Counted from the first letter of the stretch, positions 18,533-35,713 are shown. The stretch: 58,965 nt of DNA from Patescibacteria group bacterium (GCA_038078555.1 JBBTYQ010000001.1:1-58965); one strand, 5' to 3'. Program-made: numbers and translations. The notes: generated from the sequence alone by a model not told the origin.

Positions 18533-19627
18533 TTACATATCCAAGCTGTAAAGCTTTTTGTCGTATCTGTTTATAAAAATCAGCTGATTTCCTGAAAGTT
18601 CCAAATTGTAAACGTCTATGGCTATTTTGGAATTCAAAGGAATTTCGAGGAAGGTGTTGTTTGTGATATCAACTTCATAAATCCGGTCGTCGGAATAAAA
18701 CGCTCGTTTTAAATAGTCATCAGGCAAAAGAGGTTTTTTAATAGTGTTATAGCCCAAAGAAACCGCGCAATAAATTTTAGCAAAATTCACTAAACATTTT
18801 TTCGGAAAAGAAGAAAATTGTAAGTCAGCCTTAACTTTTCCGTTTAATTCAATCAGCTTTAAATCGCTCTCTCCTTCCTGATTAATGCTGTGCATTAATC
18901 CCCAGCTTCCGTCTTTGGCAAAATCAATCAATAATCCCTTGCCATTCGCAAAAATACTTAAAGCTTTATTTTTTATATCAATTGACCAAATTTCATTATC
19001 ATAAGAAGCCGATGATTTTGGAATAAGGAGAACTTTATCCGAAGTAATCCATTTTAAATCAAAACCATATTGATTAAAAGATAAAACTTTTGTTGTTTTT
19101 TGTTTGGCATCTTTAAGATCTTTAATTATTAAATTACTTATCGCGGTGGCTCCGGTATTTTCCAGATAAGCGACTTTTGTTCCGTCAACGGAAAAACCGG
19201 CGGCTAAAGCGTTAATCTCCTGCCAGATTTTTTTCTTAATATCAAAGATTTCTATTTTGTTTGCTTTTACGATAATCTTATTCCCGCTATTATCAGCTTC
19301 TACTGCTTTTAGATTGCTGATTATTCGATCGCTTATTATTTCGTCTTCTACATCGGGCTTAACTTTTAAAATTTGGCCTTGATTATTGATATAAAAAATT
19401 TCGGTTGAAGTCGCATTAGCTGCAAGCCAAAAATCAAAAACTTCCTGATCACTAATGATTTTTAATTTTTTTTCTAATGTAATCTGTTGTTGGTTGTTAG
19501 TTGTAGGTTGTTGGTTAGCAGTCGGCGGTGTTAAAATTTCTTTTGATTTTTTCCAGGCAAAATAAACACCGAAAGAAATAGCGGAGATAAAAATAATAGC
19601 TGTTATTATAATAATTATTTTTTTCAT
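18533..19627 (-). CDS. Membrane-anchored hypothetical protein, last gene of the T4SS-like operon
   Basis: N-terminal TM (IIIIITAIIFISAISFGVYFAW), then a beta-rich ectodomain. The start overlaps the upstream stop (ATGA at 19624-19627). Confidence 0.6.
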   Translation of the reverse strand: MKKIIIIITAIIFISAISFGVYFAWKKSKEILTPPTANQQPTTNNQQQITLEKKLKIISDQEVFDFWLAANATSTEIFYINNQGQILKVKPDVEDEIISDRIISNLKAVEADNSGNKIIVKANKIEIFDIKKKIWQEINALAAGFSVDGTKVAYLENTGATAISNLIIKDLKDAKQKTTKVLSFNQYGFDLKWITSDKVLLIPKSSASYDNEIWSIDIKNKALSIFANGKGLLIDFAKDGSWGLMHSINQEGESDLKLIELNGKVKADLQFSSFPKKCLVNFAKIYCAVSLGYNTIKKPLLPDDYLKRAFYSDDRIYEVDITNNTFLEIPLNSKIAIDVYNLELSGNQLIFINRYDKKLYSLDM

Positions 19628-20250
19628 TTTTTTGTATAAACTAATTTACATATCCCCGTACCATCGGTCTGTTGATCAGAAAATGTAATCGTCGGCAATT
19701 CAGTTAAATTATTTTGCCCTTTGATGCTTTCTGCCCAACTTTGACAGGATTTATAGGTCATACTTTTCTGAGTAATAGAACATACCCCTGTGCCTCTAGA
19801 ACAAGTGCTAACTGTTGATTGATTTGATGTTTCTGTTGTGCTATTTGTCGCCGTTTTTATCACCGGCTTTACGAATTCCGGTTCTCTTAATTGCAATATT
19901 TCCGGATTTATAGTTCTTAGTAAAAGCGAAGCGCCAATTAACAATACAATGCCCCAAACAGCTCCGGTAATCCAACTTACGGCTTCTGATTGTTTTGAAG
20001 CGTTTCCCGACGAAACCGTGTATAAAATTCCTCCGTAAATTATTGCGCCTAGTGCTGTTACGCCCACCAAAGCCAGCGAATAGTTGTAAAGCTTTGACAC
20101 TAAGCCGGATGAACCGCCTAATGTTTCTGTGCCGCACCAGGGATAATTGTATTCACTGCAGGTGAAATCAACAGTTGCTCCAAAAACCGAAACACTGCTT
20201 ATAAAAAACAGAAATGCGGATATTATTAAAATTTTTGAAAACATCTTCAT
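19624..20250 (-). CDS. T4SS pilin-like (VirB2/TrbC-type) protein with a short Cys-containing C-terminal domain
   Basis: Signal peptide, then two hydrophobic helices around LALVGVTALGAIIYGGILYTVSSGNASKQSEAVSWITGAVWGIVLLIGASLLL. This is the pattern of the T4SS_pilin family common in Patescibacteria. Confidence 0.55.
   Translation of the reverse strand: MKMFSKILIISAFLFFISSVSVFGATVDFTCSEYNYPWCGTETLGGSSGLVSKLYNYSLALVGVTALGAIIYGGILYTVSSGNASKQSEAVSWITGAVWGIVLLIGASLLLRTINPEILQLREPEFVKPVIKTATNSTTETSNQSTVSTCSRGTGVCSITQKSMTYKSCQSWAESIKGQNNLTELPTITFSDQQTDGTGICKLVYTKK
19844..20177. repeat. Copy 1 of a perfect 334-nt direct duplication (pilin module)
   Basis: Base-for-base identical to 20792-21125 (offset 948) when the printed lines are compared. 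Confidence 0.95.
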
Positions 20251-20265
20251 TTATTATAATTTATT

Positions 20266-21219
20266 CTACCTGAAATAAAAACTTAAATGCGGACCCGTGG
20301 CGTGCGATGGGCAGTAATTCTCACCTGCAACGCACTCTTTAATTATAGCCATACTGCCAGTCCCTCCTTTATATTGTGCCATATTATTGTAAATATAATT
20401 ATATAGTCCGGCTGAATAATTCAAATCCACCGACCCCATGCCAAAGCCTTGGCTTACATGCCCTTGCTCCGAACCGCCGGTTATTACAATTTCTCTGGCA
20501 ATTGCTCTATCTACGGGATTAGCACTGTTTTCCAAATCTTTTCTGATTTTAATAAGAGTGTTTATGGTGTCTTTAGGAATTCCATTTAAACTGGTGCAAT
20601 TATTTGAAGCCTGATTTGGACATAAACCATTTGTCCCAACCACAGGAATGCCCGCCGCCTTAAGAGCCTGATAAGCTTCATCATGAGAATAAAATAAACT
20701 TTTTTCCAAATCAGTCCAATTACTCTTATCCGTTGCTTTGTTAAGATATTCCGGATGTTTTGAGTAATAAGCTCTGGATGCCGCCGCTTGTTTTGTCGCC
20801 GTTTTTATCACCGGCTTTACGAATTCCGGTTCTCTTAATTGCAATATTTCCGGATTTATAGTTCTTAGTAAAAGCGAAGCGCCAATTAACAATACAATGC
20901 CCCAAACAGCTCCGGTAATCCAACTTACGGCTTCTGATTGTTTTGAAGCGTTTCCCGACGAAACCGTGTATAAAATTCCTCCGTAAATTATTGCGCCTAG
21001 TGCTGTTACGCCCACCAAAGCCAGCGAATAGTTGTAAAGCTTTGACACTAAGCCGGATGAACCGCCTAATGTTTCTGTGCCGCACCAGGGATAATTGTAT
21101 TCACTGCAGGTGAAATCAACAGTTGTAACGGCCAAAGAAAAATTGAACGATATGATAAAAAATAAAATTACCAGGATGCTGATATTTTTTGCTTTTTTAA
21201 TTTTACAGCTTTCATTCAT
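20266..21219 (-). CDS. T4SS pilin-like protein fused to a C-terminal globular domain of about 180 aa (possible LAS-type hydrolase-like)
   Basis: The N-terminal 110 aa after the signal peptide are identical to the neighbouring gene. The C-terminal domain contains ITGGSEQGHVSQGFGMGSVDL and SHATGPHLSFYF, the latter recalling the M23 TGPHLHF motif. That link is speculative. Confidence 0.5.
   Translation of the reverse strand: MNESCKIKKAKNISILVILFFIISFNFSLAVTTVDFTCSEYNYPWCGTETLGGSSGLVSKLYNYSLALVGVTALGAIIYGGILYTVSSGNASKQSEAVSWITGAVWGIVLLIGASLLLRTINPEILQLREPEFVKPVIKTATKQAAASRAYYSKHPEYLNKATDKSNWTDLEKSLFYSHDEAYQALKAAGIPVVGTNGLCPNQASNNCTSLNGIPKDTINTLIKIRKDLENSANPVDRAIAREIVITGGSEQGHVSQGFGMGSVDLNYSAGLYNYIYNNMAQYKGGTGSMAIIKECVAGENYCPSHATGPHLSFYFR
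20792..21125. repeat. Copy 2 of the perfect 334-nt direct duplication (pilin module)
   Basis: Identical to 19844-20177. Confidence 0.95.
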
Positions 21220-21226
21220 TAATAAA

Positions 21227-21964
21227 TTACTTCACTTTTAACTGGATGTTTTTTCTGGCAAATTGCATTTCATCAAACAAATTTCTAATAATAATCACCA
21301 GATTAATTGAAAAATCTTTAGGCGCGGCAGAATCAATATTAAGCTCCAAATCACTGCGTGAGGTATTTTCACTTTCATAAATAACAGCTTCGTTTGCCGT
21401 CCACTCAAAACTAAGCTTGCTCAAATCTCCGATATTGAAAAAAAACGGATAAGCAATAAAAAGATTCTTTCCGGCTCCAATTAAGTTTTTCTCGTAAGGA
21501 GCGTCTATCACGACTTCCGGACTGACAACCGGAATTCTTATGATTTTATCTATTTGACTTCCCCCTTTATAATCGAAAAGCGCAATTCTTACTTCAATAT
21601 CTTGGCCTGAATAATTAGTAGTGTTAAAAGAATATTGCTTGATGCCCAATCCGTTATTTTCGTTTAAAACCAAATTGTCATTTAAATACCAGCGAACTTT
21701 TGTTTTTGAAAGGTCGGCGATTTTGCCGTTATCAATCAATTCAAAACTTATATTGACCAAAGATCCTTTTACCGGAAAAATTTTCCCTTGGTACCAAACC
21801 GGCACATAGCTATTAGCCTGCCAAGAAACTAAAAATTGAGGGACAGCTTGCGCTTTTGCATAAGGCAAAAATCCAAATAACAAAATTAATAAGGTAAATA
21901 ATAAAAATGCCCAGCTTATAATGTCTGACATTTGTCGTTTTTTTGAAATTTTAAAATTTTCCAT
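21227..21964 (-). CDS. Membrane-anchored hypothetical protein (T4SS-like operon)
   Basis: Signal/TM segment WAFLLFTLLILLFGFLPYAKA followed by a beta-rich domain. No recognisable family. Confidence 0.55.
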   Translation of the reverse strand: MENFKISKKRQMSDIISWAFLLFTLLILLFGFLPYAKAQAVPQFLVSWQANSYVPVWYQGKIFPVKGSLVNISFELIDNGKIADLSKTKVRWYLNDNLVLNENNGLGIKQYSFNTTNYSGQDIEVRIALFDYKGGSQIDKIIRIPVVSPEVVIDAPYEKNLIGAGKNLFIAYPFFFNIGDLSKLSFEWTANEAVIYESENTSRSDLELNIDSAAPKDFSINLVIIIRNLFDEMQFARKNIQLKVK

Positions 21965-21967
21965 TTT

Positions 21968-22321
21968 TTATTTTATCGCTTTTACCGCCCCGATTTTTCC
22001 CGCTATTTCCGGCTTATTAATCAAATAAATCGCTACTATTAAGGTTGCGGTGCGAATCGGCAAAATATCCAGCATAGGCACAAATTCTATCAAGTTTCCG
22101 CTCAAAGCTGACGCTTGTTTTCCAAACCCGATGCCTCCTTTCATTATAAACCAAAATTGAGTAAGCGCCAAAACAAAAACATCAATCATCAGTCCGAAAA
22201 AAATCAGAATTTGACCGACAACCGGAACACCGGCGCTAAAACCAATAACAACTTCAAATAAATCCGCCCCTCCTACAATCATTACCATTATTATAATTTC
22301 CGGCAAAGATATTTTTGCCAT
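21968..22321 (-). CDS. Small polytopic membrane protein (T4SS-like operon)
   Basis: Three to four hydrophobic helices. The track start at 22345 is GTG and the first ATG (MAKISLPEIII) is at 22321. Confidence 0.55.
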   Translation of the reverse strand: MAKISLPEIIIMVMIVGGADLFEVVIGFSAGVPVVGQILIFFGLMIDVFVLALTQFWFIMKGGIGFGKQASALSGNLIEFVPMLDILPIRTATLIVAIYLINKPEIAGKIGAVKAIK

Positions 22322-22379
22322 AATTGTTGAAATTTTCGAGCTCACATTATAGCGAAGAAAATTTCACTACAATTATGAG

Positions 22380-22646
22380 CATCGAGCACTCAAATTACTT
22401 TAAACTATCCTTTAAACGACTTTTTAACCATCGAACACTTTGCCCTCTTTGCTTTAATTTTCGCTCTCTTTCTTGGGCATCTTTTTTATTTTTATATGCT
22501 TCATAATAAATCAATTCTGGGTTTTTGTTGTGATGTTCTTTAAATCTCCTTCTTAAATCGTCTGTATAACCAATATAAGTCTCCTTTGTTGTAATATTTC
22601 TGATTAAATAAATATAGTACATTGAAAATAATTTGAGTGCTCGATG
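22380..22646 (-). mobile_element. GIY-YIG gene cassette bounded by an 18-bp perfect inverted repeat
   Basis: CATCGAGCACTCAAATTA at 22380-22397 and its exact reverse complement at 22629-22646 bracket the 75-aa ORF. The left arm overlaps the stop codon and the right arm ends 7 nt before the ATG. Confidence 0.35.
22395..22622 (-). CDS. Stand-alone GIY-YIG nuclease family protein (YhbQ/UPF0213-like)
   Basis: MYYIYLIRNITTKETYIGYTDDLRRRFKEHHNK ... ERERKLKQ is the GIY-(x10)-YIG core with conserved R, E and a late E/K helix. Confidence 0.85.
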   Translation of the reverse strand: MYYIYLIRNITTKETYIGYTDDLRRRFKEHHNKNPELIYYEAYKNKKDAQERERKLKQRGQSVRWLKSRLKDSLK

Positions 22647-22689
22647 AAGGTTTGACAGCTAAATTTTGTTCGTCTGATGACTCCAAAAT

Positions 22690-24438
22690 TTAGGTCAACT
22701 CCTTCATCTCCAATATTTCCTCTGGTTTTGTGGTAATAATTTGATTTTCAAAATAAGACGGCACAATTTGAATCGCCACGTGCTTTAGTCCGGCAAAAAA
22801 TAACCCTTCGCCTACATTGGCCTCCAAAAGCAAACTTTTTTCCGCCTCGGAAAGATTGAATGTTTTCGCCAAAACTTCTATTGAAGACGGCGCTTGTTTA
22901 AGCAAAAGCTGAAGGCTGGAATTGCTAATAATCGGCCGGCCATAAGGCGACTCCAAAAAATCTTCCACATTTTGAGTAATAGTGGTAAGGCCTAAATAAT
23001 ATTTCCGGCATCTCTTTGCTAAGCTGAAAAGAAACGAAGCGCTGTCCGGATATTTCATCATCCACCACGCTTCATCAATCACCAAAATTCTCTTTTTTAA
23101 TTCAGCTCTGATTAAATTCCAAACATAATTAAGAACAATATAAATTGCAATCGGCCGCAGTTCTTCCTCAAGGTCGCGCACCGAAAAGACTATCAAACGG
23201 TTTTTTACGTCTACATTAGTAGGCCGGTTGGTAAATCCAGAATAAGTACCGCGAGTATATTTATAAAGACGCTCGGCCAATCCCCGGCCGCCTTCCATAT
23301 TTTCTAAAACCGTCTGCAAATCTTCTAAAAGCGGTGGTTCGATATTGATAAAATCTTTGTGTTCTGGCGTAATGCCTCTTGAAGCATAAGTTTCTGTGAT
23401 AGCTCTATCTAAAAGCGCATCTTCCTCAGGAGTGATTTTGCCAAGCATAAGTTTTAACAAGCCAGCCAGATTTAAAATATGGGATTTAAAAACATCGGCC
23501 GCATCTTCGTCTTTGGGAATAATTGGAATATCAAATGGATTTATTGTACTTTCCGAAGTTAAAGAAATTTTAAAAAAACTTCCTCCGACTGTTTGAGCTA
23601 ATTTTTTATATTCTTCTTCCGGGTCGATTATTAAAATATCCGTGCCCATCATAAGCGAACGCAAAATTTCCAATTTAACAGCAAAAGATTTTCCCGCGCC
23701 CGCCTTGGCAAAAACTACCGAATTGGCGTTTTCTAAAGAAAAACGGTCGAAAATAACCAAAGTATTATTATGCCGATTAATGCCGTAAAGAATACCCTCG
23801 TCAGAAGTCAAATCCATAGAAACAAAAGGAAACATTGAAGAAGCCGGACCGGAATTAAGAGGCGTATGAACTGATAATTTATCTTGGCCTAAGGGCAAGA
23901 CCGAAGAAAATCCTTCAATTTGCTGGAAAATAGCCGGTTTGGCGTAAACCAATTGGCTTTCAAACAAAGAATTGATTTTTTCTTCTAATTTATTAAGCTC
24001 TTCAAGCGAATCGGCCTGCATGGAAATATAAACACCCGTGTTAAACATTCTCTCTTGAGCTTGCTGGAGAACATCGCGAAGATTTTCGATATCAGTATAA
24101 GCGGTCTCAAGCATCGGATCTCTGACTAATCCTTTTTCTTCTCGCTCCAATAACTGGGCTTCAACGTTGGTGGCTTTTCTCCTTAAATCTTTGAGCGCTA
24201 AAGCTGTTTCAACCGGATGAATAAAAACAGAAACGTCCAAAAGTTCGGGCAAATTTATTATAGAATTAAACCAGCCGGTCGAAAGATACCTGGGATAAGT
24301 AAAAATAAAAACCGTTTTAACGAATTTTTCGCCGATTTTCACATAACCGGGATTATTTTCAAGCGCCGCTGGAGCAATGACATTTTTCACATCGCTTTCG
24401 CCGGGCGTATAAGCTTGAGGAATTTTAATTTTTTCCAT
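22690..24438 (-). CDS. virB4: VirB4/TrbE/TraC-type T4SS ATPase (C-terminal two thirds)
   Basis: Walker A VFAKAGAGKSFAV and Walker B RILVIDEAWWMM. The N-terminal IAPAALENNPGYVKIGEKFVKTVFIFTYPRYLSTGW matches the mid-region of Gram-positive-type VirB4 proteins. Confidence 0.8.
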   Translation of the reverse strand: MEKIKIPQAYTPGESDVKNVIAPAALENNPGYVKIGEKFVKTVFIFTYPRYLSTGWFNSIINLPELLDVSVFIHPVETALALKDLRRKATNVEAQLLEREEKGLVRDPMLETAYTDIENLRDVLQQAQERMFNTGVYISMQADSLEELNKLEEKINSLFESQLVYAKPAIFQQIEGFSSVLPLGQDKLSVHTPLNSGPASSMFPFVSMDLTSDEGILYGINRHNNTLVIFDRFSLENANSVVFAKAGAGKSFAVKLEILRSLMMGTDILIIDPEEEYKKLAQTVGGSFFKISLTSESTINPFDIPIIPKDEDAADVFKSHILNLAGLLKLMLGKITPEEDALLDRAITETYASRGITPEHKDFINIEPPLLEDLQTVLENMEGGRGLAERLYKYTRGTYSGFTNRPTNVDVKNRLIVFSVRDLEEELRPIAIYIVLNYVWNLIRAELKKRILVIDEAWWMMKYPDSASFLFSLAKRCRKYYLGLTTITQNVEDFLESPYGRPIISNSSLQLLLKQAPSSIEVLAKTFNLSEAEKSLLLEANVGEGLFFAGLKHVAIQIVPSYFENQIITTKPEEILEMKELT

Positions 24439-24451
24439 ATATTTGCATATT

Positions 24452-24473
24452 AATTCGCATTATTCACGATTAC
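24452..24473 (-). repeat. Intercistronic repeat copy (plus-strand reading AATTCGCATTATTCACGATTAC)
   Basis: 20 of 22 nt identical to 25777-25798. Both begin at the GAG-TAA end of the upstream ORF. Confidence 0.7.
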
Positions 24474-25120
24474 TCTTTGGCAATTTTTAATTCTTTTTTC
24501 TCGGTCGCCTGCGGATTATAAAGATTATAAAATAATTCAATAATCTCTTCGCTGTTTAAAGCAACCGCGCGCAATCCTATCTGAGATAATCCTTCTATTA
24601 TTTGCTCTGTCCGCTGATTAATTTGCATTGCTTTTTGTTCAAAACCTTCGTCCTCTTTTTTCGGAGTTTTTCCTTTTTCCCAGAATTTCAGCGAAGCGAT
24701 TAAATTTTCGCCTGCTTTAGGAATTTGAACCGGGTCATAAGGCACAACAGCAAAAAAAGTTTTCGCCATTACCGAATTCATTTCCACGAAAGACTTAATA
24801 AATTCTATATATTCTGTTATTTGATTTTTCAACAATTCATTTTCTTCTTTTCCTTGGCGTTCTTTAAGTTTTTCCAAATAACTGCTAATGTTCATTTTTC
24901 TGGAATGAATAACAAACTGTATGGAAAAACCCAGGGTATTTAGAAAATTTTGATAAGCATAAGTAATTATATTCTGTTCTTCTTCGGATTTAAGTTCGAA
25001 ATTAATTCCGGATACCATTAAAATTCGGCGCAAGCCGCCGGTTTTTAAAACAACCACTCCGTCCTTGATATCTTCAATTTCCACGAATTGCTGGGTAGAT
25101 TGCGCTTCTTTTGTTGGCAT
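24470..25120 (-). CDS. Probable detached N-terminal domain of VirB4
   Basis: QQFVEIEDIKDGVVVLKTGGLRRILMVSGINFELKSEEEQNIITYAYQNFLNTL resembles the N-terminal region of Gram-positive VirB4/TcpF-like ATPases. It lies immediately upstream of the ATPase ORF. Confidence 0.5.
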   Translation of the reverse strand: MPTKEAQSTQQFVEIEDIKDGVVVLKTGGLRRILMVSGINFELKSEEEQNIITYAYQNFLNTLGFSIQFVIHSRKMNISSYLEKLKERQGKEENELLKNQITEYIEFIKSFVEMNSVMAKTFFAVVPYDPVQIPKAGENLIASLKFWEKGKTPKKEDEGFEQKAMQINQRTEQIIEGLSQIGLRAVALNSEEIIELFYNLYNPQATEKKELKIAKE

Positions 25121-25161
25121 AAAATAATTATATCTTAAATTTTTTTTAACTGCTAATTCGC

Positions 25162-25698
25162 TTATCGATAATCCACGCGTCTCGCAATATCCCTATCGCC
25201 TGTAATTTTCTTGAAAACCGAAAATCTTTCTTTAGGCTGTTTTTCCCACTTAAGTGAACGATGCGGTTTCTCTCTTTTTGGAATTGGTGCTTTTGTCGTC
25301 ATTATATTTTGCCAAAGCTTATTTACACTGGGCATATTGTAAAAAAAATCTTTTAAGTTTTCTCTTTTTGTCAAAGTCGCTTCTTCCATAATTTTAGGAA
25401 TTTCTATCGTCCGTTCTTTTATTTCTCTTTGCCACAAATAAAGCCTGGGTTTCCACAAAAACCCAAAAGCATACAAAATAATTTTTATCAAAGGCTGGCC
25501 GTTATATTTAACAAAAGCCAAAGCCGCGCCGATAACGACTAGAACAGCCGTGATAATAAACCAAAGCCATGTTGCTAAAATAAAGAAAAGCATAAAACTC
25601 GCTCCGCCAGCCGCTGCCAAATACAAAAACTGCCTTAAGGTTAAAGGTCCGACAATTTTACTTTCTACATCGATAAATTGAGGAATTTGAAATTGCAT
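25162..25698 (-). CDS. PrgI family (VirB3-like) T4SS membrane protein
   Basis: MQFQIPQFIDVESKIVGPLTLRQFLYLAAAGGASFMLFF followed by a second TM. The ATG is at 25698; the track TTG extension to 25731 is unlikely. Confidence 0.6.
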   Translation of the reverse strand: MQFQIPQFIDVESKIVGPLTLRQFLYLAAAGGASFMLFFILATWLWFIITAVLVVIGAALAFVKYNGQPLIKIILYAFGFLWKPRLYLWQREIKERTIEIPKIMEEATLTKRENLKDFFYNMPSVNKLWQNIMTTKAPIPKREKPHRSLKWEKQPKERFSVFKKITGDRDIARRVDYR

Positions 25699-25701
25699 AA
25701 A

Positions 25702-25798
25702 GTAATCGCAAATAATGCTAATATAACTCAAAACAATGCGAATGATTATTGGTAATGCAAATTAATAATTTGCTAAAATTCGCATTATTAGCGATTAC
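25702..25798 (-). promoter_or_regulatory. Long-range intercistronic hairpin (17-nt arms, one mismatch) spanning stop-to-start between two T4SS genes
   Basis: GTAATCGCAAATAATGC (25702-25718) pairs with GCATTATTAGCGATTAC (25782-25798). An inner hairpin is GCAAATT-ATT-AATTTGC. Confidence 0.5.
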
Positions 25799-27174
25799 TC
25801 TTTTTTTATTTTCTGCATCGTCCGTAAATCAATCACGTCCCCGGTTAAGTCATCTTCATTTTCTGTCCTTATTTCAATTTTAGGAGCTTTTATTTCAATT
25901 TTAGCCGGTTGGAATTCGAATTTTTCTTCAGTCGTCACTTCAGGCACGAGTCCAGCCAAAGATTCAATTTTCGGTTTTGGCGTAATAATTTCAATTTTAG
26001 GCGCCTCAATTTTTATTGATTTTGAAGTATTCAATGATTCAGTTTTTATTGATTCAGCATATTGAGGCGCTAAAGAAGCGTCAATTTTTTTCTCCGGCAT
26101 AGGTGGCATTGGTGGCTGGTTAAATTTAGGAATTTTAGCCTCAATAATATGAGGCGGCTCAATTTCCTTGGTTTTAAATATAGTAGACTTTAAAACATCC
26201 TTTTGCTCTTGAACTGATTTAGCATCTTTAATTTGACTCTCGGCTGTCTTTTTATCAACTGAAATTGGCGTTCTTAATTCCGTGTAATGAACTATTCTCG
26301 GTTTGATATCTTGTTTTGCCTTAAAAGCAGACGCAACTGGCGGCTCTTGAACTTTAATCATAACCGGAGAATCAATTTTAATATTTTCCGGCATATGAAA
26401 TTTAGGCGCAGCAGGCGGAGTTGGAATTGGCATAACGGACGGCTTTAATGATCCAGCTTTGCCAACCGCAGAAAGCTTAGACAGCATTAAAATATCTTCT
26501 TTTTTTATTTTTTCATCTAAGCCAATTTCAATTGTTGCCGTTATCGGCGCTTCAGTTTGTTTTTCTTTTCTATTTAAAAATCCGAATAACCCGCCCAGCG
26601 ATCGCTTCATCCCAAAAGTCGGCTTAATTTCCGTTTCTTTGTGGATTATCACTGGTTCGACTTGACTCTCCGCAAGCGGACCTTTTGTTTCAATTTTCGG
26701 CGGCAATGGAATTTCTTTTCTAAGCTCTGATTTTGGCGCTTCTATCGGCTTTTCTTCAAAACTAACAACCTTGGGCGCCTCTGGTTTAATTTCTTCCTTT
26801 TTCTCCTGTTCAATTTTTGACCGCAAATCAATTATATCTTCAGCCGTCGAAACTGGCGCATAAATTTTATCAATTTCTCTTCTTATTGAAGTAAAAATTT
26901 TTAGATCAATTTCACGAGCAATAGAATTAGCAACTTCCGGATTAATACCCAGTTCTGAGCGGATTTCTTTTGATAAATCATCAAAATGAATAAACCCGTT
27001 TACAACATAACCAGCAAGGCCGAGAATTGTACCGATTTTATCATCGAGAAGATGGTGTTCTTTTCCGATTTTCCAGATTATCGTTCCATTTAAAGAAGAG
27101 CACAGCGCTTCTCTTAAAATCATCGGCAATAAATCCCATCTCTTATCGATTTGTTTTTGTGAAATTTTAATCAT
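25795..27174 (-). CDS. Hypothetical protein: globular N-terminal domain plus a long Pro/Lys/Glu-rich repetitive region
   Basis: Repeated (A)PKIEI / IEAPK motifs and runs such as PPMPPMPEKK. No TM seen. It lies inside the T4SS-like operon. Confidence 0.55.
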   Translation of the reverse strand: MIKISQKQIDKRWDLLPMILREALCSSLNGTIIWKIGKEHHLLDDKIGTILGLAGYVVNGFIHFDDLSKEIRSELGINPEVANSIAREIDLKIFTSIRREIDKIYAPVSTAEDIIDLRSKIEQEKKEEIKPEAPKVVSFEEKPIEAPKSELRKEIPLPPKIETKGPLAESQVEPVIIHKETEIKPTFGMKRSLGGLFGFLNRKEKQTEAPITATIEIGLDEKIKKEDILMLSKLSAVGKAGSLKPSVMPIPTPPAAPKFHMPENIKIDSPVMIKVQEPPVASAFKAKQDIKPRIVHYTELRTPISVDKKTAESQIKDAKSVQEQKDVLKSTIFKTKEIEPPHIIEAKIPKFNQPPMPPMPEKKIDASLAPQYAESIKTESLNTSKSIKIEAPKIEIITPKPKIESLAGLVPEVTTEEKFEFQPAKIEIKAPKIEIRTENEDDLTGDVIDLRTMQKIKKE

Positions 27175-27200
27175 AAATAAAATTTAACCAATACTTGTTT

Positions 27201-29147
27201 TCAGGCTTTTGGAGCCTCGGCAGCTGACGTTGCTTCTTCCGGCGACCAACCTACTGCATAATTATTCATTGTTTTTTCAAAATGATCTTTAGTATCTTGG
27301 GACATATTACTTATGGCATCTTCATAAACTGTTGTAAAAATTTTTCGCGATTTACTGTCAAATTTAGGAATTATATTTGCTACTAGAGCGGAGTTTGTAG
27401 TTGCAATAGCTCCGGCAATATATTGTGACAATATTTTTAGTGAATCCGCATCAAAACCAAATTTGGCATTACCGCTATACATATCTTTAAAAGACGCCAT
27501 AGCAACTTCTTTTTTAGTAAACTTACTCATAAGATCATTTGTAGCTTTTTCTAATTCTTCAGCCCTTTTTATTGGATCTGCTGTTTTCAAAGCATTATTA
27601 ATTTCTACACTAAAGAGTCCCTGATTTTGCAAATCAGAAAATGCCTTGCCTTGATTAAATCTAATAAATTTACTCTTGTTTTCGTCTGTAAAAATTTCCT
27701 TTACGTTTAAATCACCTAACGCCCCTTCTTTGCCCAATCTCTTAAGCAAAGCTATTTTATGCGGAGCAGAGGCGGTTAACCACGAAGCTGTTTTATAAGC
27801 TGCCTTAGCCTCGGCTGAAGACATAGCCCCGACTTCTTTTTCATAATGTTTTACTAAATCTTCGCCTCCTTTTGTTGATAATTTAGTAATTCCTTGAGCA
27901 AGCCAACCGGTCGTAAGTTTTCTTACCTTTGATTTTGATGACCACTCTGTAAGTTTCTCGGCTCGAGATTTGTCGTCTGGTTTAGGACCTTTTTTACTCA
28001 ACCAACCAGTGCCATACTGAAACCCTCTCTTCTTTGTCCAATTACCAATGCCATAACTTGCTTTTTCCGCCCAACCGTAAAAAATCGCTCCACCACTACC
28101 GCTTAATTTTTTAGCCACTATTAATCCGCCAAAAATCAATCCCAAAACAATCACTAAATTTCCAATCACCGACAAACCGCTTGATACAGTAGTTGGAAAA
28201 CCTTGAGCTGCTTCATTAGCCATGTTAATAAATTCAGAATGATGATTATTCGCCGCAATCACCGCTAAATAAAGAAAAAATAAAGTAATTGGCGCAAAAA
28301 ACACCCATTCTATAAATGTATTCCACCATTTTTTCCAATAACCGGCTGTACTGGGAAAAATCCACAAAAGCCAGACAAGTGGCGAAAGAATCAAAAGAAT
28401 GCCTAAAGCAATATAACGAATAAAAAGCATTACTGCGGTTGCTAAAAGTGCCAGCGCGCCAAGCAGTGTGAAAAAAGCGATAAAAAATATCGAAGCAACC
28501 GTATTTAATAATCCAACGCCCATACTTCCCGCTCCTTCAAAAGAAATCCCCCCTTGCATAATCGCATCTACGCTTAACAATCCTTGAACTTCGAGAATGC
28601 CCGCAAAAGCGCTGGAAAAAGAATCAGGCCCGGTTAAAGTTGATTTTTCCAAAAAATAAACAGTAAAAAAATTGGCTAAATTAATGAACGCTCCGGCAAT
28701 CACCAAACTGAAATTCACCAAAAGCGCGGCTACAATTAATTTCCAAAGCACTGATTTTACGCCGTAGCTTTCCTGTCTTAAAATCGTGGCAAAAGCAATT
28801 ACGATAATCGCCAAGACAAAACCCAAGTTGGCGAAATTAAGAACTATTGACCAGCCGATTTTAACGGTCGGACTGTCAATAATGTGCATATTCATCTTTA
28901 TTGCTAAAGAAACCAAAAATCCGGCAATAGTAAACAGTACAGAAGCAATCCAGGCCATTACATAGCCGATTCCAGTAGCGGCCCACCCTACAACTGATGC
29001 TTTTATGCTCCCCATTCCCATTCCAATCAAACCATCAAGCCAACCTTCTCCTTCAGCCGCCAAAGCGCTGTTAGTAAACAACAATCCTAAAACCACTACT
29101 AAAGAAATTATCCAAATTATTTTTTTATTGAAAAATTTTATTTTCAT
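27201..29147 (-). CDS. Polytopic VirB6/TrbL-like T4SS membrane protein with a C-terminal helical soluble domain
   Basis: Signal peptide plus at least 8 hydrophobic helices over about 370 aa, then about 270 aa hydrophilic. Position and topology fit VirB6/TrbL, but I can cite no sequence motif. Confidence 0.45.
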   Translation of the reverse strand: MKIKFFNKKIIWIISLVVVLGLLFTNSALAAEGEGWLDGLIGMGMGSIKASVVGWAATGIGYVMAWIASVLFTIAGFLVSLAIKMNMHIIDSPTVKIGWSIVLNFANLGFVLAIIVIAFATILRQESYGVKSVLWKLIVAALLVNFSLVIAGAFINLANFFTVYFLEKSTLTGPDSFSSAFAGILEVQGLLSVDAIMQGGISFEGAGSMGVGLLNTVASIFFIAFFTLLGALALLATAVMLFIRYIALGILLILSPLVWLLWIFPSTAGYWKKWWNTFIEWVFFAPITLFFLYLAVIAANNHHSEFINMANEAAQGFPTTVSSGLSVIGNLVIVLGLIFGGLIVAKKLSGSGGAIFYGWAEKASYGIGNWTKKRGFQYGTGWLSKKGPKPDDKSRAEKLTEWSSKSKVRKLTTGWLAQGITKLSTKGGEDLVKHYEKEVGAMSSAEAKAAYKTASWLTASAPHKIALLKRLGKEGALGDLNVKEIFTDENKSKFIRFNQGKAFSDLQNQGLFSVEINNALKTADPIKRAEELEKATNDLMSKFTKKEVAMASFKDMYSGNAKFGFDADSLKILSQYIAGAIATTNSALVANIIPKFDSKSRKIFTTVYEDAISNMSQDTKDHFEKTMNNYAVGWSPEEATSAAEAPKA

Positions 29148-29151
29148 AAAA

Positions 29152-30627
29152 TTAATTTTGCGATTGAAGCTGAATACAGGTATTTAATCTGTTTTGACCG
29201 TTAGTCAGATTGATTTGCCATGCTTGCGCTTCTTGGTCAGCTGCCAAACGATTTGCGCCGCTAAGAATCTGCTCCTGAATAACTTGAGTGTCATATTTAT
29301 CCATGAACTGAGCATACCCTTGCTGAGCAATAGTTAATTGTCTTACAGTACCGGCCAGATTAATCGTAGCTATTACATTATTAGCTTCTTTAATTTTATT
29401 TTCTAAAGCAATTATTACGGGTTTTAAAATATTAATAGCATCCTGAACCGCCTGAATTTCACTGCTCGAAACTAATGGAATACAATTGCGCGCATTGATT
29501 CCCTGGTAAATAACGAGCAATTGTTCGGCTGAAGATAAAGAATTTCTCTTTGCATTCAAAATATACTGCCACTCATTAATAATAGCTTGAACCTGTTTTG
29601 TCATCTGCCTCTTTTGCGAAGCTATTTCTGCATCAACCACGGTTTGATATTCAGGCGGCCGATAAGAAGAACCTCCGCCTCCGGCTGATGACCCCCCTTT
29701 TACCAAACCAACCCCTTCTTTAATCACTCTATTAATAACAGCGTTAACTAAAGCAGAAGTCCACGAGTGAATATTAGCGGCCCATTTTGTATCGCTCGTT
29801 ACAGCATCAGCCACCGCCGCGCCAACCGTATCGCCCGGAGTAATAATTTCTTCTTTTAAACATTTGCTTGGAGGAGCGGATTTTTTAGCTGAGTCGATAC
29901 AATTAGATAACGCCGCGCCTGTTGCGCCGGTATTTGTGCAGGATTGTATTAACGCATCCAATTGCTTATTTGGTTCATATTCTAAGCATCGTTTAACCGA
30001 CAAAAATCCTTTGCCAGCCAAAGCTTCATTTCTAGCCGCTTCGCTAGCCGCCCATTCCTTCGAAAGCATTTCATCGTGAATTATAAGCATTGTTCCGAAA
30101 TAATTATTTTGCGGTTGCCAGGCTTCGTTATAAGCAAGCCAGCCGCCATTTTCAAAATTCTCGTAAAAATCCTCAATATTTTCCACAATATCATCTAATG
30201 TACACTCCACCCGCTGGCCAAATTTTTTAACCGGCAAAAGCGACAATTTTACTTGAAGTTTGAAAGGCGAACACAAAAAAGCCGCGTCTGTCTGAAGAAT
30301 TACATCACCAATTGCCGCTTGTCCGGCATCTTTCATAAAACCGTTCCAATCAGTGACAAATCTCGGCTTGCCGCCGCCTTGAATCCACTCGGTTGTTTGG
30401 TCAACTATATGGTCAATGATACGCTTGGCAATAATATCACGGAGAGATAGGCCCGTCTTTTCTTCAAGCCACATTATTTCTTCTCTCATGGTCTGATAAA
30501 CAGTTTTACCAATATGAACAATATCAATAACCGCAATCGCTTCGGCTCTTTTAGGCAGAATTAATCCGCTGCTAAAAATAACAATCAGCAAAATAGATAC
30601 TAAAATTTTTTCTATTTTTCCGTTCAT
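29152..30627 (-). CDS. Secreted hypothetical protein, possibly VirB5/TrbJ-like
   Basis: Signal peptide. The mature start AIAVIDIVHIGKTVYQTMREEI resembles the PV(I/F)D...Q start of TrbJ/VirB5 family proteins. The C-terminus is coiled-coil-like and Gln-rich. Confidence 0.35.
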   Translation of the reverse strand: MNGKIEKILVSILLIVIFSSGLILPKRAEAIAVIDIVHIGKTVYQTMREEIMWLEEKTGLSLRDIIAKRIIDHIVDQTTEWIQGGGKPRFVTDWNGFMKDAGQAAIGDVILQTDAAFLCSPFKLQVKLSLLPVKKFGQRVECTLDDIVENIEDFYENFENGGWLAYNEAWQPQNNYFGTMLIIHDEMLSKEWAASEAARNEALAGKGFLSVKRCLEYEPNKQLDALIQSCTNTGATGAALSNCIDSAKKSAPPSKCLKEEIITPGDTVGAAVADAVTSDTKWAANIHSWTSALVNAVINRVIKEGVGLVKGGSSAGGGGSSYRPPEYQTVVDAEIASQKRQMTKQVQAIINEWQYILNAKRNSLSSAEQLLVIYQGINARNCIPLVSSSEIQAVQDAINILKPVIIALENKIKEANNVIATINLAGTVRQLTIAQQGYAQFMDKYDTQVIQEQILSGANRLAADQEAQAWQINLTNGQNRLNTCIQLQSQN

Positions 30628-31487
30628 AATCCAATTGCTTTAGATTTTTCGCTCAACAAATCCTGAACTTCCTGCGCTTTTTCTGATAATTGCGGAAGTG
30701 TTTGCGCAGCCAAATAACCTTTGATTGGATCTTTTGAACAATCCGCTAATGCTTGATAAATTAAGCTGGCATTTTTAAAATGAATGATTATTTGTTTATG
30801 AATATCCGACCAATCAGACGGAATAATAAGATTTAAATAATCTTTTGCCAAATTTTGATAAAGAGTATTCAATTCTTGATTTAAGGAAGAATTACCGGTC
30901 AAAAAACAATCGCTTTCAATATCTTTAGTTATTTGTTTAGCTGTTCTCTGATATTTAGGATCGCGAAATCTATTTTGAGAAATCAACTCGATTTCTTTAA
31001 GATAATCCTTTTTCGCCTCGCGTGAATTATCCTGTGAAATTTTTATATCCTTGTCATCAACCAAAACGCTGAAAATCAATTGCGGATCTTGAAGACCTGC
31101 CAATGCCTCCTCAATCAATTTTTGGCTTTCTGGATTATTGGAATCAAAACCTTCAAAAGGATTATCGCTGCCTTGATCCATTTCTTTCATCTGACCAAAC
31201 ATTGATTTGGCAACAAATTCGGTTAAATTAACAGTCTGTTGGCTCGCCAATGCTTGATTATTTATTTTTTTAACGTCAGTTAAATTTTCCAAACCCGAAT
31301 AAATATCAGGATTTAAATCTTTTAGCCATTGAATCGGATTTTGAGCCGAAATTTTATCAATTGTTTTTTTGGCGTCTGTTAAGCTTTGGTCTGCTTCGAC
31401 ATTTGGCGCGGAATTTTTCAAAATAAAATAAGAGCCCGTCAATCCTGCAAATAAAATCAAAATCATTGCCGCAATTTTCAAATTCAT
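30624..31487 (-). CDS. Membrane-anchored hypothetical protein, first gene of the T4SS-like operon
   Basis: N-terminal TM AAMILILFAGLTGSYFIL, then a helical ectodomain. The stop overlaps the next start (ATGA). Confidence 0.55.
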   Translation of the reverse strand: MNLKIAAMILILFAGLTGSYFILKNSAPNVEADQSLTDAKKTIDKISAQNPIQWLKDLNPDIYSGLENLTDVKKINNQALASQQTVNLTEFVAKSMFGQMKEMDQGSDNPFEGFDSNNPESQKLIEEALAGLQDPQLIFSVLVDDKDIKISQDNSREAKKDYLKEIELISQNRFRDPKYQRTAKQITKDIESDCFLTGNSSLNQELNTLYQNLAKDYLNLIIPSDWSDIHKQIIIHFKNASLIYQALADCSKDPIKGYLAAQTLPQLSEKAQEVQDLLSEKSKAIGL

Positions 31488-31515
31488 ATTGATTTAATTA
31501 TATCATTTTATACGC

Positions 31516-32358
31516 TCAAAACAATGTTGATAACTCTATAATTTGTTTAATATTCAAATCTTGAGGTCTTTTATTGGGGTTGATGCCGGTTTCAAGTAAT
31601 TTTTTAATAATTTCTTCTTTCGTTTCGGCTAAACCTTGAGCTTTTATCCCTGATGCCAAATTATTAATAATTGTTTTTCTCGGCTGCTTATAAAGAATCT
31701 TGATGAATTGATAATAAGTTTCAGGTGTTAAATTTTGGGTTTTGGGTTTTAATTTTATTATTGAACTGTCTACCTTTGGCGGCGGCCGAAAATATTTTTT
31801 TGAAACGTTAGCGATTATTTCCGGCTCTGCCCAAACTTGAATACTGGCGGCTAATAAATTCATTTTTGGCTTGCCCTGAGCTTGCCGAAGAGGCTTACCC
31901 TGAGCTTGCCGAAGGGCGCAAATGCGATCCGCCACTTCTTTTTGTATTAAAAAAACTATCAATGATGGCTTATTTTCCAATTCCGACAAAATCCTTAATA
32001 AATAACCAGTTATATAGTAAGGAATGTTGCCGACCAGTTTATAGTTAGCAATTGGTAATTTATAGTTGGCAGTTAATTTTGGCAAAACTTTCAGCGCATC
32101 GCCTTCAATAATTTCTATATTTTCTTCTTTAGAAAATTTTTCTTTTAAAAAATCGACAAAGTTTTTATCTTTTTCAACGGCAAAAATTTTCGCCTCTATT
32201 TTTTTATCAATTAACCGATTAACCAATTCACTGGTTAATTCTCCGTGTCCCGACCCGATTTCAATTAAAACGTCTCCTTGTTCAATTTCAATTGCGTCGG
32301 CAATTTTTCTCAGCTTTTTTTTATTTATTAAAAAATGCTGGCCTAGATATCTTGGCAT
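31516..32358 (-). CDS. rsmA: 16S rRNA (adenine1518/1519-N6)-dimethyltransferase
   Basis: LGQHFLINKKKLRKIADAIEIEQGDVLIEIGSGHGELT and VGNIPYYITG motifs. Confidence 0.9.
   Translation of the reverse strand: MPRYLGQHFLINKKKLRKIADAIEIEQGDVLIEIGSGHGELTSELVNRLIDKKIEAKIFAVEKDKNFVDFLKEKFSKEENIEIIEGDALKVLPKLTANYKLPIANYKLVGNIPYYITGYLLRILSELENKPSLIVFLIQKEVADRICALRQAQGKPLRQAQGKPKMNLLAASIQVWAEPEIIANVSKKYFRPPPKVDSSIIKLKPKTQNLTPETYYQFIKILYKQPRKTIINNLASGIKAQGLAETKEEIIKKLLETGINPNKRPQDLNIKQIIELSTLF
31868..31915. repeat. GC-rich 24-nt tandem repeat (2 copies, 2 mismatches) in frame inside rsmA
   Basis: GGCTTGCCCTGAGCTTGCCGAAGA / GGCTTACCCTGAGCTTGCCGAAGG encodes LRQAQGKP twice. Confidence 0.9.
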
Positions 32359-34176: not shown

Positions 34177-34177
34177 A

Positions 34178-35713
34178 TTACTCCTTGTCTTTCAGCCGAT
34201 ATTGAAAGGCCTCGGCTAAATGTTCCGCCTTAACAATATCACAATTTTCCAGGTCAGCAATTGTTTGGGCGATTTTTAAAATCCGATAATAACCTCGGGC
34301 GGAAATAAACGATTTTTCCAGGATATTCTTCAAAAAATCTTCTGCCTCAGCCGATAAATTAATTAATTCATCTGTCTGTTTTGAACTCATTTCCGAATTG
34401 GTAAAAATTTTCAGCTTAGCTCCAGAAAATCGTTTCTCCTGAACTTTGCGGGCTCCGATAACTTTATTTTTTATATTTCTAGCTGAATCGTCATTTTTTT
34501 GTTTTCTTAGATTTTCAATTTTTATTCTCGGCACTTCAATCTGAATATCAATTCTATCCAATAATGGCCCGGATATTTTCTTTTGATAACGAAAAACCTC
34601 GTAAGCGCTGCATCGGCAGACATGCTCCGGGTCATTAAAATAACCGCAAGGGCAGGGGTTCATAGCCGCTACTAAAGAAAATCTTGCGGGAAACACCAAA
34701 ACATTTTTTGCTCTTGATACACAAACTGTTCCGCTCTCCAAAGGCTGGCGCAAAGATTCTAAAAGATCTCTTCGGAATTCCGGAATCTCATCCAAAAATA
34801 AAACTCCGCGGTGCGCCAAACTTATTTCTCCCGGCCTTGGATTGGCGCCTCCGCCAATAACCGAAACAGGCGAAGCGCTATGATGAGGAGAACGAAATGG
34901 CCGGAAATTTACAAAAGTTTTTCCGCTTAAAAACCCCGCCGCAGAATAAATTTTTGTTATCTCGATAATTTCTTCGGCATTGGGCGGCGGCAGAATAGAA
35001 AGCATCGCCTGAGCCAGCATCGTCTTGCCCGACCCCGGCGGTCCGGACATCAGAACATTATGGCCGCCGGCAGCCGCAATCATTAAGGCTCTTTTGGCGC
35101 TTTCTTGTCCTTTGATTTCAGAAATGTGAACAGCATAATTTTCACCTACGGATTCTAAATTTGTAATGTTCTGAATGCCGATTAAATTTCTGTCTTCCAA
35201 GTGATCGATAATTTCCAATATATTATTAACCGGAATAATGTTGATTCCTTCAATAATCGCCGCCTCTACGGCATTTTGTCTTGGCAAAAATAAAAATTTA
35301 AATCCTGATTTTTTTGCCAATTGAGTAATGCTCAAACTGCCGTTTACCGGCCTTAACATTCCGTCAAGCGAAAGTTCGCCGATAAAAATTTTATCGCTTG
35401 CGTCAAACTCTTTAATTTGTTTGGTCGCAAGCAAATAGCCCAAGGCTATGGCCAAATCATATTGAGAACCGTTCTTTTTAACATCAGCCGGCGCCAAATT
35501 TATGGTAATTCTCCTGTTTTCTTTGGTCGGCGGCTTGATACCGGAATTTTTTAAAGCTGAACTGACGCGCTCTTTGGCCTCGTTAAGCGCCTTGTCAGCC
35601 AATCCTACTATATTAAAAGAATGGAGACCGACATTAATATCGGTCTCCACTTCAATAAGCTTCGCATCAATTCCCTCTAGCTCCGCAGAATAAACTTTAG
35701 AAAAATTTTTCAT
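34178..35713 (-). CDS. comM: YifB/ComM family Mg-chelatase-like AAA+ ATPase
   Basis: N-terminal Lon-protease-like domain, Walker A MSGPPGSGKTMLA, VLFLDEIPEF, and a C-terminal zinc cluster CPCGY...CRC. Confidence 0.9.
   Translation of the reverse strand: MKNFSKVYSAELEGIDAKLIEVETDINVGLHSFNIVGLADKALNEAKERVSSALKNSGIKPPTKENRRITINLAPADVKKNGSQYDLAIALGYLLATKQIKEFDASDKIFIGELSLDGMLRPVNGSLSITQLAKKSGFKFLFLPRQNAVEAAIIEGINIIPVNNILEIIDHLEDRNLIGIQNITNLESVGENYAVHISEIKGQESAKRALMIAAAGGHNVLMSGPPGSGKTMLAQAMLSILPPPNAEEIIEITKIYSAAGFLSGKTFVNFRPFRSPHHSASPVSVIGGGANPRPGEISLAHRGVLFLDEIPEFRRDLLESLRQPLESGTVCVSRAKNVLVFPARFSLVAAMNPCPCGYFNDPEHVCRCSAYEVFRYQKKISGPLLDRIDIQIEVPRIKIENLRKQKNDDSARNIKNKVIGARKVQEKRFSGAKLKIFTNSEMSSKQTDELINLSAEAEDFLKNILEKSFISARGYYRILKIAQTIADLENCDIVKAEHLAEAFQYRLKDKE

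Follow-up and report, generated by a model that had tools for sequence, protein, structure and literature searches.

The first 58,965 nucleotides (nt) of contig JBBTYQ010000001.1, from a Patescibacteria group bacterium (GCA_038078555.1), contain a cluster of genes related to type IV secretion systems (T4SSs). This whole stretch is called the window here. The cluster occupies positions 18533–31487 and consists of 13 consecutive co-directional open reading frames (ORFs) on the minus strand. They are labelled g01–g13 from low to high coordinate, and their products are 364, 208, 317, 245, 125, 75, 582, 216, 189, 459, 648, 491, and 287 amino acids (aa) long. Two neighbouring pairs share 4-nt ATGA overlaps, g01/g02 at 19624–19627 and g12/g13 at 30624–30627, and the remaining intergenic gaps in the cluster are 3–67 nt.

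The original prediction, made from the sequence alone, described a 13-gene T4SS operon. The ORF listing reproduces the 13 ORFs, their coordinates, the ATGA overlaps, and the quoted motifs: GAGKS, LVIDEAWWMM, MQFQIPQFIDVESKIVGPLTLRQFLYL, and AIAVIDIVHIGK are all found in the cluster translations. The ORFs are thus real, while parts of the description need correction. One of the 13, g06, belongs to an insertion. The close packing also extends past the cluster, upstream through comM, uvrD/pcrA, and rsmA (gaps of 1, 12, and 28 nt, with rsmA 28 nt upstream of the cluster) and downstream through a kinase gene, mutM, and pyrG. Because the tight spacing reaches into the flanking genes, spacing alone is no operon limit here. 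The cluster limits used below rest on predicted function and on synteny. All cluster ORFs are intact, and the GC content of the cluster (0.34–0.40) is like that of its surroundings. Simple hydropathy finds hydrophobic N-terminal or multiple segments in 9 of the 13 products, indicating that most of the cluster is envelope-associated.

Secretion core and pilins

The features that relate the cluster to T4SSs are as follows.

22690–24438, minus strand: g07, 582 aa, motor domain of a VirB4-type ATPase; Walker A is GAGKS, Walker B is LVIDEAWW
24470–25120, minus strand: g08, 216 aa, TrsD-like protein, the counterpart of the VirB4 N-terminal domain as its own gene
25162–25731, minus strand: g09, 189 aa (178 aa from the first ATG), PrgI/VirB3-like membrane protein
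27201–29147, minus strand: g11, 648 aa, extended VirB6/TrbL-like polytopic membrane protein with a C-terminal soluble helical domain of ~270 aa
19624–20250, minus strand: g02, 208 aa, second VirB2-type pilin, with the same core as g03 and then a short Cys-containing tail
20266–21219, minus strand: g03, 317 aa, VirB2-type pilin core fused to a conserved Cys/His-rich C-terminal domain
19844–20177, identical to 20792–21125: exact 334-nt direct repeat, the mature pilin core of both g02 and g03
20266–20700, minus strand: pilin C-terminal domain, ~140 aa of g03, Cys/His-rich family

The g07 product matches the NCBIfam family conju_CD1110, a VirB4-like conjugal transfer ATPase, at 3.7e-117 and 392.5 bits (cut-off 325), and the alignment spans model positions 184–733 of 752. 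Pfam matches are P-loop_TraG (8e-25), AAA_10, and DUF87. The closest plasmid VirB4s, of the CD1110 family from Bacillota and Actinomycetota, are 30–35% identical to g07. Both the profile and the identity comparison place this VirB4 closest to the VirB4s of monoderm MPF-FATA systems.

Relatives of the cluster were compared in a set of 80 related loci, using tblastn with all 13 proteins and the flanking proteins. The g08 product aligns with NCBIfam TrsD over positions 10–200 of 201 (7.8e-11), scoring 42 bits against a family cut-off of 200. It also matches the N-termini of VirB4 models, VirB4_CagE at 4–179 and CD1110 at 2–105. The split of VirB4 is not a frameshift, because the TrsD-like ORF is separate from VirB4, and precedes it, in 78 of the 80 loci. 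The g09 product matches Pfam PrgI at 3e-11, with 44 bits against a cut-off of 27, and contains one long hydrophobic hairpin at residues 34–78. Its orthologues lie directly upstream of TrsD and VirB4 in 75 of the 80 loci.

The assignment of g11 comes from its homologues and its predicted fold. The protein has ~7 hydrophobic segments in residues 1–351 and has no Pfam match itself. Among 51 homologues, Pfam TrbL is matched by 12 (best 4.4e-6) and TrbL_4 by 3. The AlphaFold2 model has a mean pLDDT of 78.5. Its top Foldseek matches in PDB come from the R388 stalk, where they are the TrwI/VirB6 chains 8rt9_F, 8rtd_L, and 7o3v_F/G/J, with probabilities of 0.99–1.0 and TM(target) of 0.47–0.55. A profile of g11 gave no direct match to the solved VirB6 sequences. 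The Pfam matches of the homologues and the fold search are indirect but convergent, and support a VirB6/TrbL-like identity of g11.

The two pilin candidates score 23.5 bits (g02) and 22.5 bits (g03) with Pfam T4SS_pilin, whose cut-off is 26.6. The g02 product also matches NCBIfam Mbov_0395 pilin-like weakly and has a signal segment and two hydrophobic helices; tails resembling its own are found in L004 and L007, two of the related loci. The pilin orthologue in another locus, L005, reaches 33.2 bits with T4SS_pilin, above the threshold. Relatives of the g03 C-terminal domain match T4SS_pilin (PF18895) in 54 of 60 cases (best 4.7e-12) and TrbC/VirB2 (PF04956) in 3. The orthologue above the cut-off and the 54 matching relatives secure the pilin identity of g02 and g03. 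The original prediction of two T4SS_pilin-type proteins, a PrgI/VirB3-like protein, a VirB4-type ATPase with its N-terminal domain in a separate ORF, and a 648-aa VirB6/TrbL-like protein is therefore well borne out.

The 334-nt repeat shared by g02 and g03 is 100% identical and has unrelated sequence on either side. Thus the mature core is the same in both products, which show no relation to each other in signal peptide and C-terminal part. The pilin arrays published for Patescibacteria show identities of at most 54% (PMC12102498). The repeat is possibly the result of a recent duplication or gene conversion, or of a repeat-induced assembly error. The exact 317-aa product of g03 is carried by at least 4 contigs.

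The C-terminal domain of g03 represents a family of 108 clusters at 50% identity, nearly all of them T4SS-pilin fusions. Its members share the motif CTSLxGIP...VTGGTExGHxxHGxGxPxVDL...HxH, although Gln and Ser take the place of two conserved His residues in the window copy and its ~8 nearest relatives. No Pfam match was obtained with 60 relatives, no PDB match with profiles of 6 and 30 sequences, no PHROG match, and no phage match by tblastn. A word-indexed homologue search with this domain alone recovered nothing but the query. The motif may resemble those of LAS/M15-type zinc peptidases. If the topology is VirB2-like, the C-terminal modules would lie along the outer surface of the pilus. They might then constitute a modular "pilin-displayed payload", such as a zinc-dependent wall hydrolase or a host-envelope adhesin; the identical core would be kept by gene conversion, and both variants would co-polymerise. 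This proposal is rather doubtful.

Host lineage, gene order, and transfer genes

The VirB4 protein of the window is encoded on the 243-kb ENA contig ERZ1292619 Hain_H41_01um_R2_16, of which the window makes up the first 59 kb. The contig is from an assembly of the 0.1 µm fraction of Hainich groundwater, and the locus is present in other assemblies as well. Among GTDB contigs with one genome per species, the nearest VirB4 genes are those of Candidatus Wolfebacteria (83% identity). The next ones (59–79%) are from Jorgensen-, Kaiser-, Taylor-, Zambryski-, Nomura-, Sungii-, and Terrybacteria and from other metagenome-assembled genomes of Paceibacterota. More than 570 Patescibacteria VirB4 loci were confirmed at 59–83% identity. 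By these VirB4 relatives, the host is a member of Paceibacteria (Parcubacteria) within Patescibacteria, or the candidate phyla radiation. On these sequence comparisons, its genome is that of a Wolfebacteria-like, ultra-small groundwater bacterium. This agrees with the reduced, episymbiotic type of lineage that had been proposed.

In dozens of Paceibacteria genomes, spread over many candidate genera, the genes follow the order uvrD-rsmA-[g13]-g12-g11-[g10]-g09-g08-g07-[g05]-g04-pilin(s)-g01, all on one strand. Of the 80 loci, 43 have rsmA next to the cluster and 29 have uvrD, with order and strand preserved; comM/YifB is adjacent in 7. The identities of VirB4 and of rsmA across loci are correlated (rho 0.71, p 1e-7). 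The conserved order and the co-divergence with rsmA indicate that the cluster is a vertically inherited chromosomal feature and not an integrative and conjugative element (ICE). The original prediction had noted the housekeeping flanks, doubted an ordinary ICE, and pointed to synteny across related genomes as a check, and the comparison agrees with it.

Pfam and NCBIfam scans covered the 13 cluster genes, the flanks, and the larger ORFs elsewhere in the window. Among the scanned ORFs there is no family match for a relaxase (oriT was not searched) and none for a coupling protein, VirD4 or TcpA. VirB11, VirB9/B10, and a mobile-element integrase were likewise not found in the scanned window, where, apart from the cluster, every scanned gene is a housekeeping gene or lacks a family match. 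The early remark that relaxase, VirD4, VirB11, VirB9/B10, and an adjacent integrase were not seen is upheld by these scans. The only recombinase is a tyrosine recombinase at 36492–37397, 5 kb upstream, which matches XerC (238 bits) and XerD (234 bits) at full length and is thus Xer-type. Searches for att-like direct repeats around the cluster returned only short AT-rich, chance-level matches inside genes. One of them is a 22-nt imperfect direct repeat (91%, AT-rich) at 18011 and 31853, inside the kinase gene and rsmA.

Other ORFs recognised in the window encode a type IV pilin-like LamG protein, an AI-2E transporter, an M16 peptidase, a class II aminoacyl-tRNA synthetase, ribulose-phosphate epimerase, holA, pyrG, mutM, a histidine kinase, rsmA, pcrA/uvrD, comM/YifB, PNPase, an M23 peptidase, a Mur ligase, SHMT, a DsbA-like protein, a sigma factor, UvrC, UvrA, UvrB, and a few orphans. 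The pcrA/uvrD and comM genes (32371–35713) lie in the same co-directional array as the T4SS genes, which may be no more than housekeeping synteny, or may point to a role related to DNA. RsmA/KsgA contains an in-frame 24-nt tandem duplication at 31868–31914, by which RQAQGKPL occurs twice. At the low-coordinate end of the window, 1–2767 on the minus strand encodes a secreted protein that has FN3-like repeats and is truncated where the contig ends, with at least 922 aa. Adjoining it, 2842–4086 encodes the type IV pilin-like protein, with an N_methyl motif and a Laminin_G_3 domain. These two are further candidates for surface or host-contact proteins, beyond the T4SS cluster.

Accessory proteins, the GIY-YIG insertion, and putative signals

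The other ORFs of the cluster are listed below.

18533–19627, minus strand: g01, 364 aa, membrane-anchored TolB-type (PD40) beta-propeller, the last gene of the conserved cluster
21227–21964, minus strand: g04, 245 aa, N-terminal anchor and two beta-rich repeats, possibly Ig-like
21968–22345, minus strand: g05, 125 aa (117 aa from ATG), small polytopic membrane protein
25795–27174, minus strand: g10, 459 aa, cytoplasmic protein with a conserved N-terminal domain of ~110 aa and a long Pro/Lys/Glu-rich low-complexity tail
29152–30627, minus strand: g12, 491 aa, secreted or anchored Cys-containing protein with a C-terminal helical bundle
30624–31487, minus strand: g13, 287 aa, N-terminal membrane anchor and charged extracytoplasmic domain
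22380–22646, minus strand: g06 cassette, with a 75-aa GIY-YIG ORF at 22395–22622 and inverted repeats at 22380–22404 and 22622–22646

Six of these proteins had been described originally as lacking a nameable family. One of the six, g01, can now be named, and g04, g05, g10, g12, and g13 are still without a family match. The g01 protein has a single N-terminal hydrophobic segment. Its profile, built from 21 orthologues, matches TolB propeller chains in PDB (4r40, 4pwz, 6pnv, and others) with E-values from 8e-9 to 2e-6 over profile positions ~120–278. As a single sequence, it gives a weak match to the Peptidase_S9_N propeller in Pfam. The TolB match shows the type of fold only, and membership in a Tol-Pal system is not implied. 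Orthologues of g01 follow the pilin gene(s) in 22 of the 80 loci.

The g04 protein has a single N-terminal hydrophobic segment and 28 orthologues, and is conserved between VirB4 and the pilin genes. It has no match in Pfam or NCBIfam, and the best result of the PDB profile search, the Ig-like domains of T4 Hoc, is not significant (E=0.33). A VirB8-like identity was considered for g04 and rejected as unsupported, the protein being beta-rich and repeated, with only that insignificant Hoc match. The g05 protein has three hydrophobic regions, seven orthologues directly after VirB4, and no match in Pfam or NCBIfam. Its identification as a third pilin was rejected, since hhalign against the pilin core gave a probability of 0.2. 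The g10 protein contains no hydrophobic segment and is composed of 8.9% Pro, 16% K+R, and 16% D+E. It is found between VirB6 and PrgI in 24 of the 80 loci. Pfam, NCBIfam, and PDB sequence searches gave no match for g10, nor did a PDB profile search with its N-terminal domain.

The original prediction compared the 491-aa g12 protein to VirB5/TrbJ. This likeness finds no support from Pfam or NCBIfam, which gave no match, from the PDB profile search, which returned coiled-coil noise, or from AlphaFold2 and Foldseek. The model has a mean pLDDT of 64, with confident helices at residues ~325–490 only and a poorly modelled N-terminal half. Foldseek against PDB found generic helical bundles at E>=0.02 and no match at E<=0.001. 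Its top 50 contain no VirB5, TrwJ, or TraC chain; given the low-confidence N-terminal half, this is an absence of support and not a disproof. The g12 protein has a signal-like N-terminus and four invariant Cys. None of its 236 homologues, all unnamed, has a Pfam match. Its orthologues occur in 37 of the 80 loci, always upstream of g11. The g13 protein has a single N-terminal hydrophobic segment and no match in Pfam or NCBIfam. Its orthologues by tblastn are confined to the 3 closest loci, each time with rsmA on one side and g12 on the other.

The g06 product matches Pfam GIY-YIG at 1.7e-12. The inverted repeats of the cassette are 25 nt long and 92% identical, with a perfect 18-nt core (2 matches in 0 of 100 shuffles). 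In L004 and L005, the two closest relatives inspected, VirB4 and g05 are 6–8 nt apart with no GIY-YIG ORF between them. Because of this spacing, the GIY-YIG segment of ~270–340 nt is considered a lineage-specific insertion and not a part of the T4SS. With tblastn, g06 has no match in 79 of the 80 related loci. L021, the one locus of the 80 with a GIY-YIG ORF, contains it elsewhere in its T4SS cluster (2130–2536); that ORF is of 94 aa and flanked by 14-nt inverted repeats. These ORFs with their inverted repeats may be small mobile cassettes. An independent assembly of the same population (L002, a 40-kb contig of ENA ERZ1292624) stops 363 nt past VirB4, at ~22327 of the window. Its end just beyond the cassette could reflect strain heterogeneity or repeats there.

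Promoter and terminator scans returned counts no different from those in shuffled sequences, and scans for rRNA, tRNA, and Rfam families had no match in the window. No obvious Shine-Dalgarno sequence is present at the cluster starts inspected. A TGnTATAAT-like extended -10 box is seen ~9 nt upstream of the g13 start, in the 28-nt spacer between rsmA and g13 (31488–31515). TATAAT (22346–22351) is located directly upstream of the annotated GTG start of g05, ~25 nt ahead of the alternative ATG. These boxes could be promoters, one heading the cluster (g13) and the other downstream of the GIY-YIG insertion (g05). A 36-nt near-repeat (83%), at 24452–24487 and 25777–25812, spans the stop codons and following spacers of g08 and g10; its coding-strand sequence is GAGTAATCGnnAATAATGCGAATT. 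It may be a common inter-cistronic signal, or chance.

Function and comparison with known systems

VirB4 was found in 2,417 of 3,035 Patescibacteria genomes surveyed by Quinonero-Coronel et al. (2025, PMC12102498). Most of these VirB4s form a monophyletic clade nested in MPF-FATA, and their neighbours are TrsD, PrgI/VirB3, VirB6, and VirB2-like pilins, the latter often in arrays. TrsD is the most abundant T4SS partner, with 1,664 homologues beside virB4. KsgA (RsmA) is among the commonest neighbours, and a ksgA neighbourhood is reported for Paceibacteria (PMC12102498). In Southlakia epibionticum, transposon sequencing showed that epibiotic growth requires SEML1_0006-0019, a cluster with an essential pilin array and without coupling protein or relaxase (Wang et al. 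2023, PMC10633639). The role of the Patescibacteria T4SS has been called "completely unknown" (PMC11665869), and reviews speculate on effector delivery or ComB-like uptake.

The locus in the window is very probably a vertically inherited chromosomal T4SS of this Patescibacteria clade, derived from MPF-FATA, which would serve host contact and not conjugation. We infer the function from the homologous cluster of S. epibionticum. In such a machine, VirB4 and its detached N-terminal domain (TrsD) would dock on PrgI/VirB3 and VirB6 in the membrane. VirB4/TrsD would power the extraction of pilins and their polymerisation into a surface filament, or a channel, across the monoderm wall, with the pilin C-terminal domains exposed on the outside of the pilus. 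The g01, g04, and g12 proteins would probably take over the missing VirB8 and VirB1 functions as wall-spanning or tip parts. The whole would serve contact and exchange with the host bacterium, either protein export or uptake of host material.

Several points weigh against this interpretation. The model for the function is a member of Saccharibacteria, distant from Paceibacteria, and the window sequence shows neither the substrate nor the direction of transport. Both window pilins are below the Pfam gathering threshold. The Foldseek E-values of g11 are weak (0.07–0.3) despite the probabilities given above. No VirB8-like or VirB1-like component was identified in the cluster, and no fold is assigned to g04, g05, g10, g12, or g13, nor to the C-terminal domain of the pilin. 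In most surveyed Patescibacteria, homologues of the type IV coupling protein (T4CP) are far from virB4 (PMC12102498), and the scan made here covers the window only.

The same apparatus might instead be an importer of DNA or nucleotides, similar to ComB or Ced, feeding a genome that is unable to make nucleotides. ComB and Ced are T4SS-derived too and likewise function without relaxase and T4CP, neither of which was found in the window. The T4SS has been named as a candidate route of nucleotide uptake, given that S. epibionticum can dispense with competence (PMC11665869), and comF, recG, and radA are located near virB4 in the class ABY1 (PMC12102498). The pcrA/uvrD helicase and comM/YifB genes directly upstream in the conserved array would also fit, although this linkage may come from compact housekeeping arrays, comM being adjacent in so few loci. 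VirB4 shows a weak similarity to CedB (1e-11, 44 bits), but this score is far under the cut-off of 700, and the best family is the conjugative CD1110 type. Except for the inserted GIY-YIG ORF, no DNA-binding or nuclease component is recognised in the cluster. The importer is possible but unlikely.

Another proposal is a VirB2-type pilus that serves adhesion only, decorated by the C-terminal domains of its pilins and moving no substrate. The two pilin genes with differing exposed C-terminal domains agree with it, as does the lack of a T4CP, the usual recruiter of substrates. In known systems, moreover, VirB4 alone is the ATPase of pilus biogenesis (PMC12102498). Against these, effector translocators without T4CP exist (Ptl and Brucella VirB), and Patescibacteria have type IV pili for adhesion and motility, a type IV pilin-like gene being present at 2842–4086 of the window itself. 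The conserved secreted proteins g12 and g13 could also be substrates or tip proteins. A purely adhesive pilus is thus very unlikely.

Finally, an ICE or a decaying remnant of one, with relaxase, T4CP, and integrase encoded outside the cluster, might be suggested by the conjugal-transfer family of VirB4, the tyrosine recombinase, the 22-nt direct repeat, and the T4CP genes often encoded far from virB4 in Patescibacteria (PMC12102498), but it is hardly credible, since the recombinase is of the Xer type, both AT-rich repeat copies are inside conserved genes, the ORFs are intact with GC like the flanks, the 3,035 surveyed genomes contain 109 relaxases with 15 near virB4 (PMC12102498), and the cluster with its rsmA/uvrD flank is collinear and co-diverging across many genera, by which synteny largely refutes it.

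The preferred interpretation, a T4SS for host contact, is not new, because it is an already published view (2023 and 2025; PMC10633639, PMC12102498, PMC11665869, PMC12857230). The locus is a further example and establishes no new principle. Few machines have been shown to be essential to epibiotic life in this very large, mostly uncultured group. The Patescibacteria T4SS is one of them, and the window provides a compact Paceibacteria example with a clean conserved order. The conserved partner set is extended by the TolB-like propeller, the beta-rich anchored protein, and the secreted 491-aa protein. What goes beyond the literature are the 334-nt identical pilin cores, the Cys/His family fused to pilins, and the recurrent terminal TolB-like g01. 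The pilin-fused C-terminal domains are candidates for the host-facing part of the machine and are the lead worth following.

Comparison with known systems starts from the importers. ComB of H. pylori and Ced of Sulfolobus share with the window a VirB4-family ATPase without relaxase and T4CP, and the analogy has been proposed in the literature. The similarity to CedB (44 bits against a cut-off of 700) and to CedD (16 against 600) is marginal, and no component specific to CedA or ComB is recognised. Similar to R388 Trw and Agrobacterium VirB (MPF-T), the window has a VirB6-like predicted fold (g11), VirB2-type pilins, and equivalents of VirB3 and VirB4. Unlike these systems, it is without VirB5, VirB7–VirB11, and VirD4, the cell is monoderm, and g11 has the extra soluble domain of ~270 aa.

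The Trs systems of pGO1/pSK41 also have a small separate homologue of the VirB4 N-terminal domain (TrsD) beside the ATPase, although they are plasmid-borne, conjugative, and without a VirB6 homologue (PMC12102498). The CTn2/CD1110 type of MPF-FATA, represented by the C. botulinum plasmid pCDC3875, shares the CD1110 VirB4, the core order VirB6-PrgI-x-VirB4, and the monoderm design without VirB7, VirB9, and VirB10. The plasmid has a full-length VirB4 of 797 aa, an SLT transglycosylase, a MOBP relaxase, and a VirD4-like T4CP immediately upstream of VirB6, and no pilin. In contrast, the window has a split VirB4, pilins, and no transfer genes, and its VirB4 is 30–35% identical.

The T4SSs of the Patescibacteria clade correspond to the window in VirB4, the separate TrsD-like protein, PrgI/VirB3, the extended VirB6/TrbL-like protein, and VirB2-type pilins (PF18895), all in one chromosomal cluster. 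They also share the ksgA/rsmA neighbourhood, with relaxase and T4CP not nearby. In Southlakia, the cluster also includes genes for lysozyme/peptidase, an NTF2-like (VirB8-like) protein, and a set of six divergent pilins, none of which was found in the window cluster. Compared with Southlakia and the other published examples, the window is distinguished by its two pilins with an identical core, the Cys/His fusion, the TolB-like propeller, and the GIY-YIG insertion.

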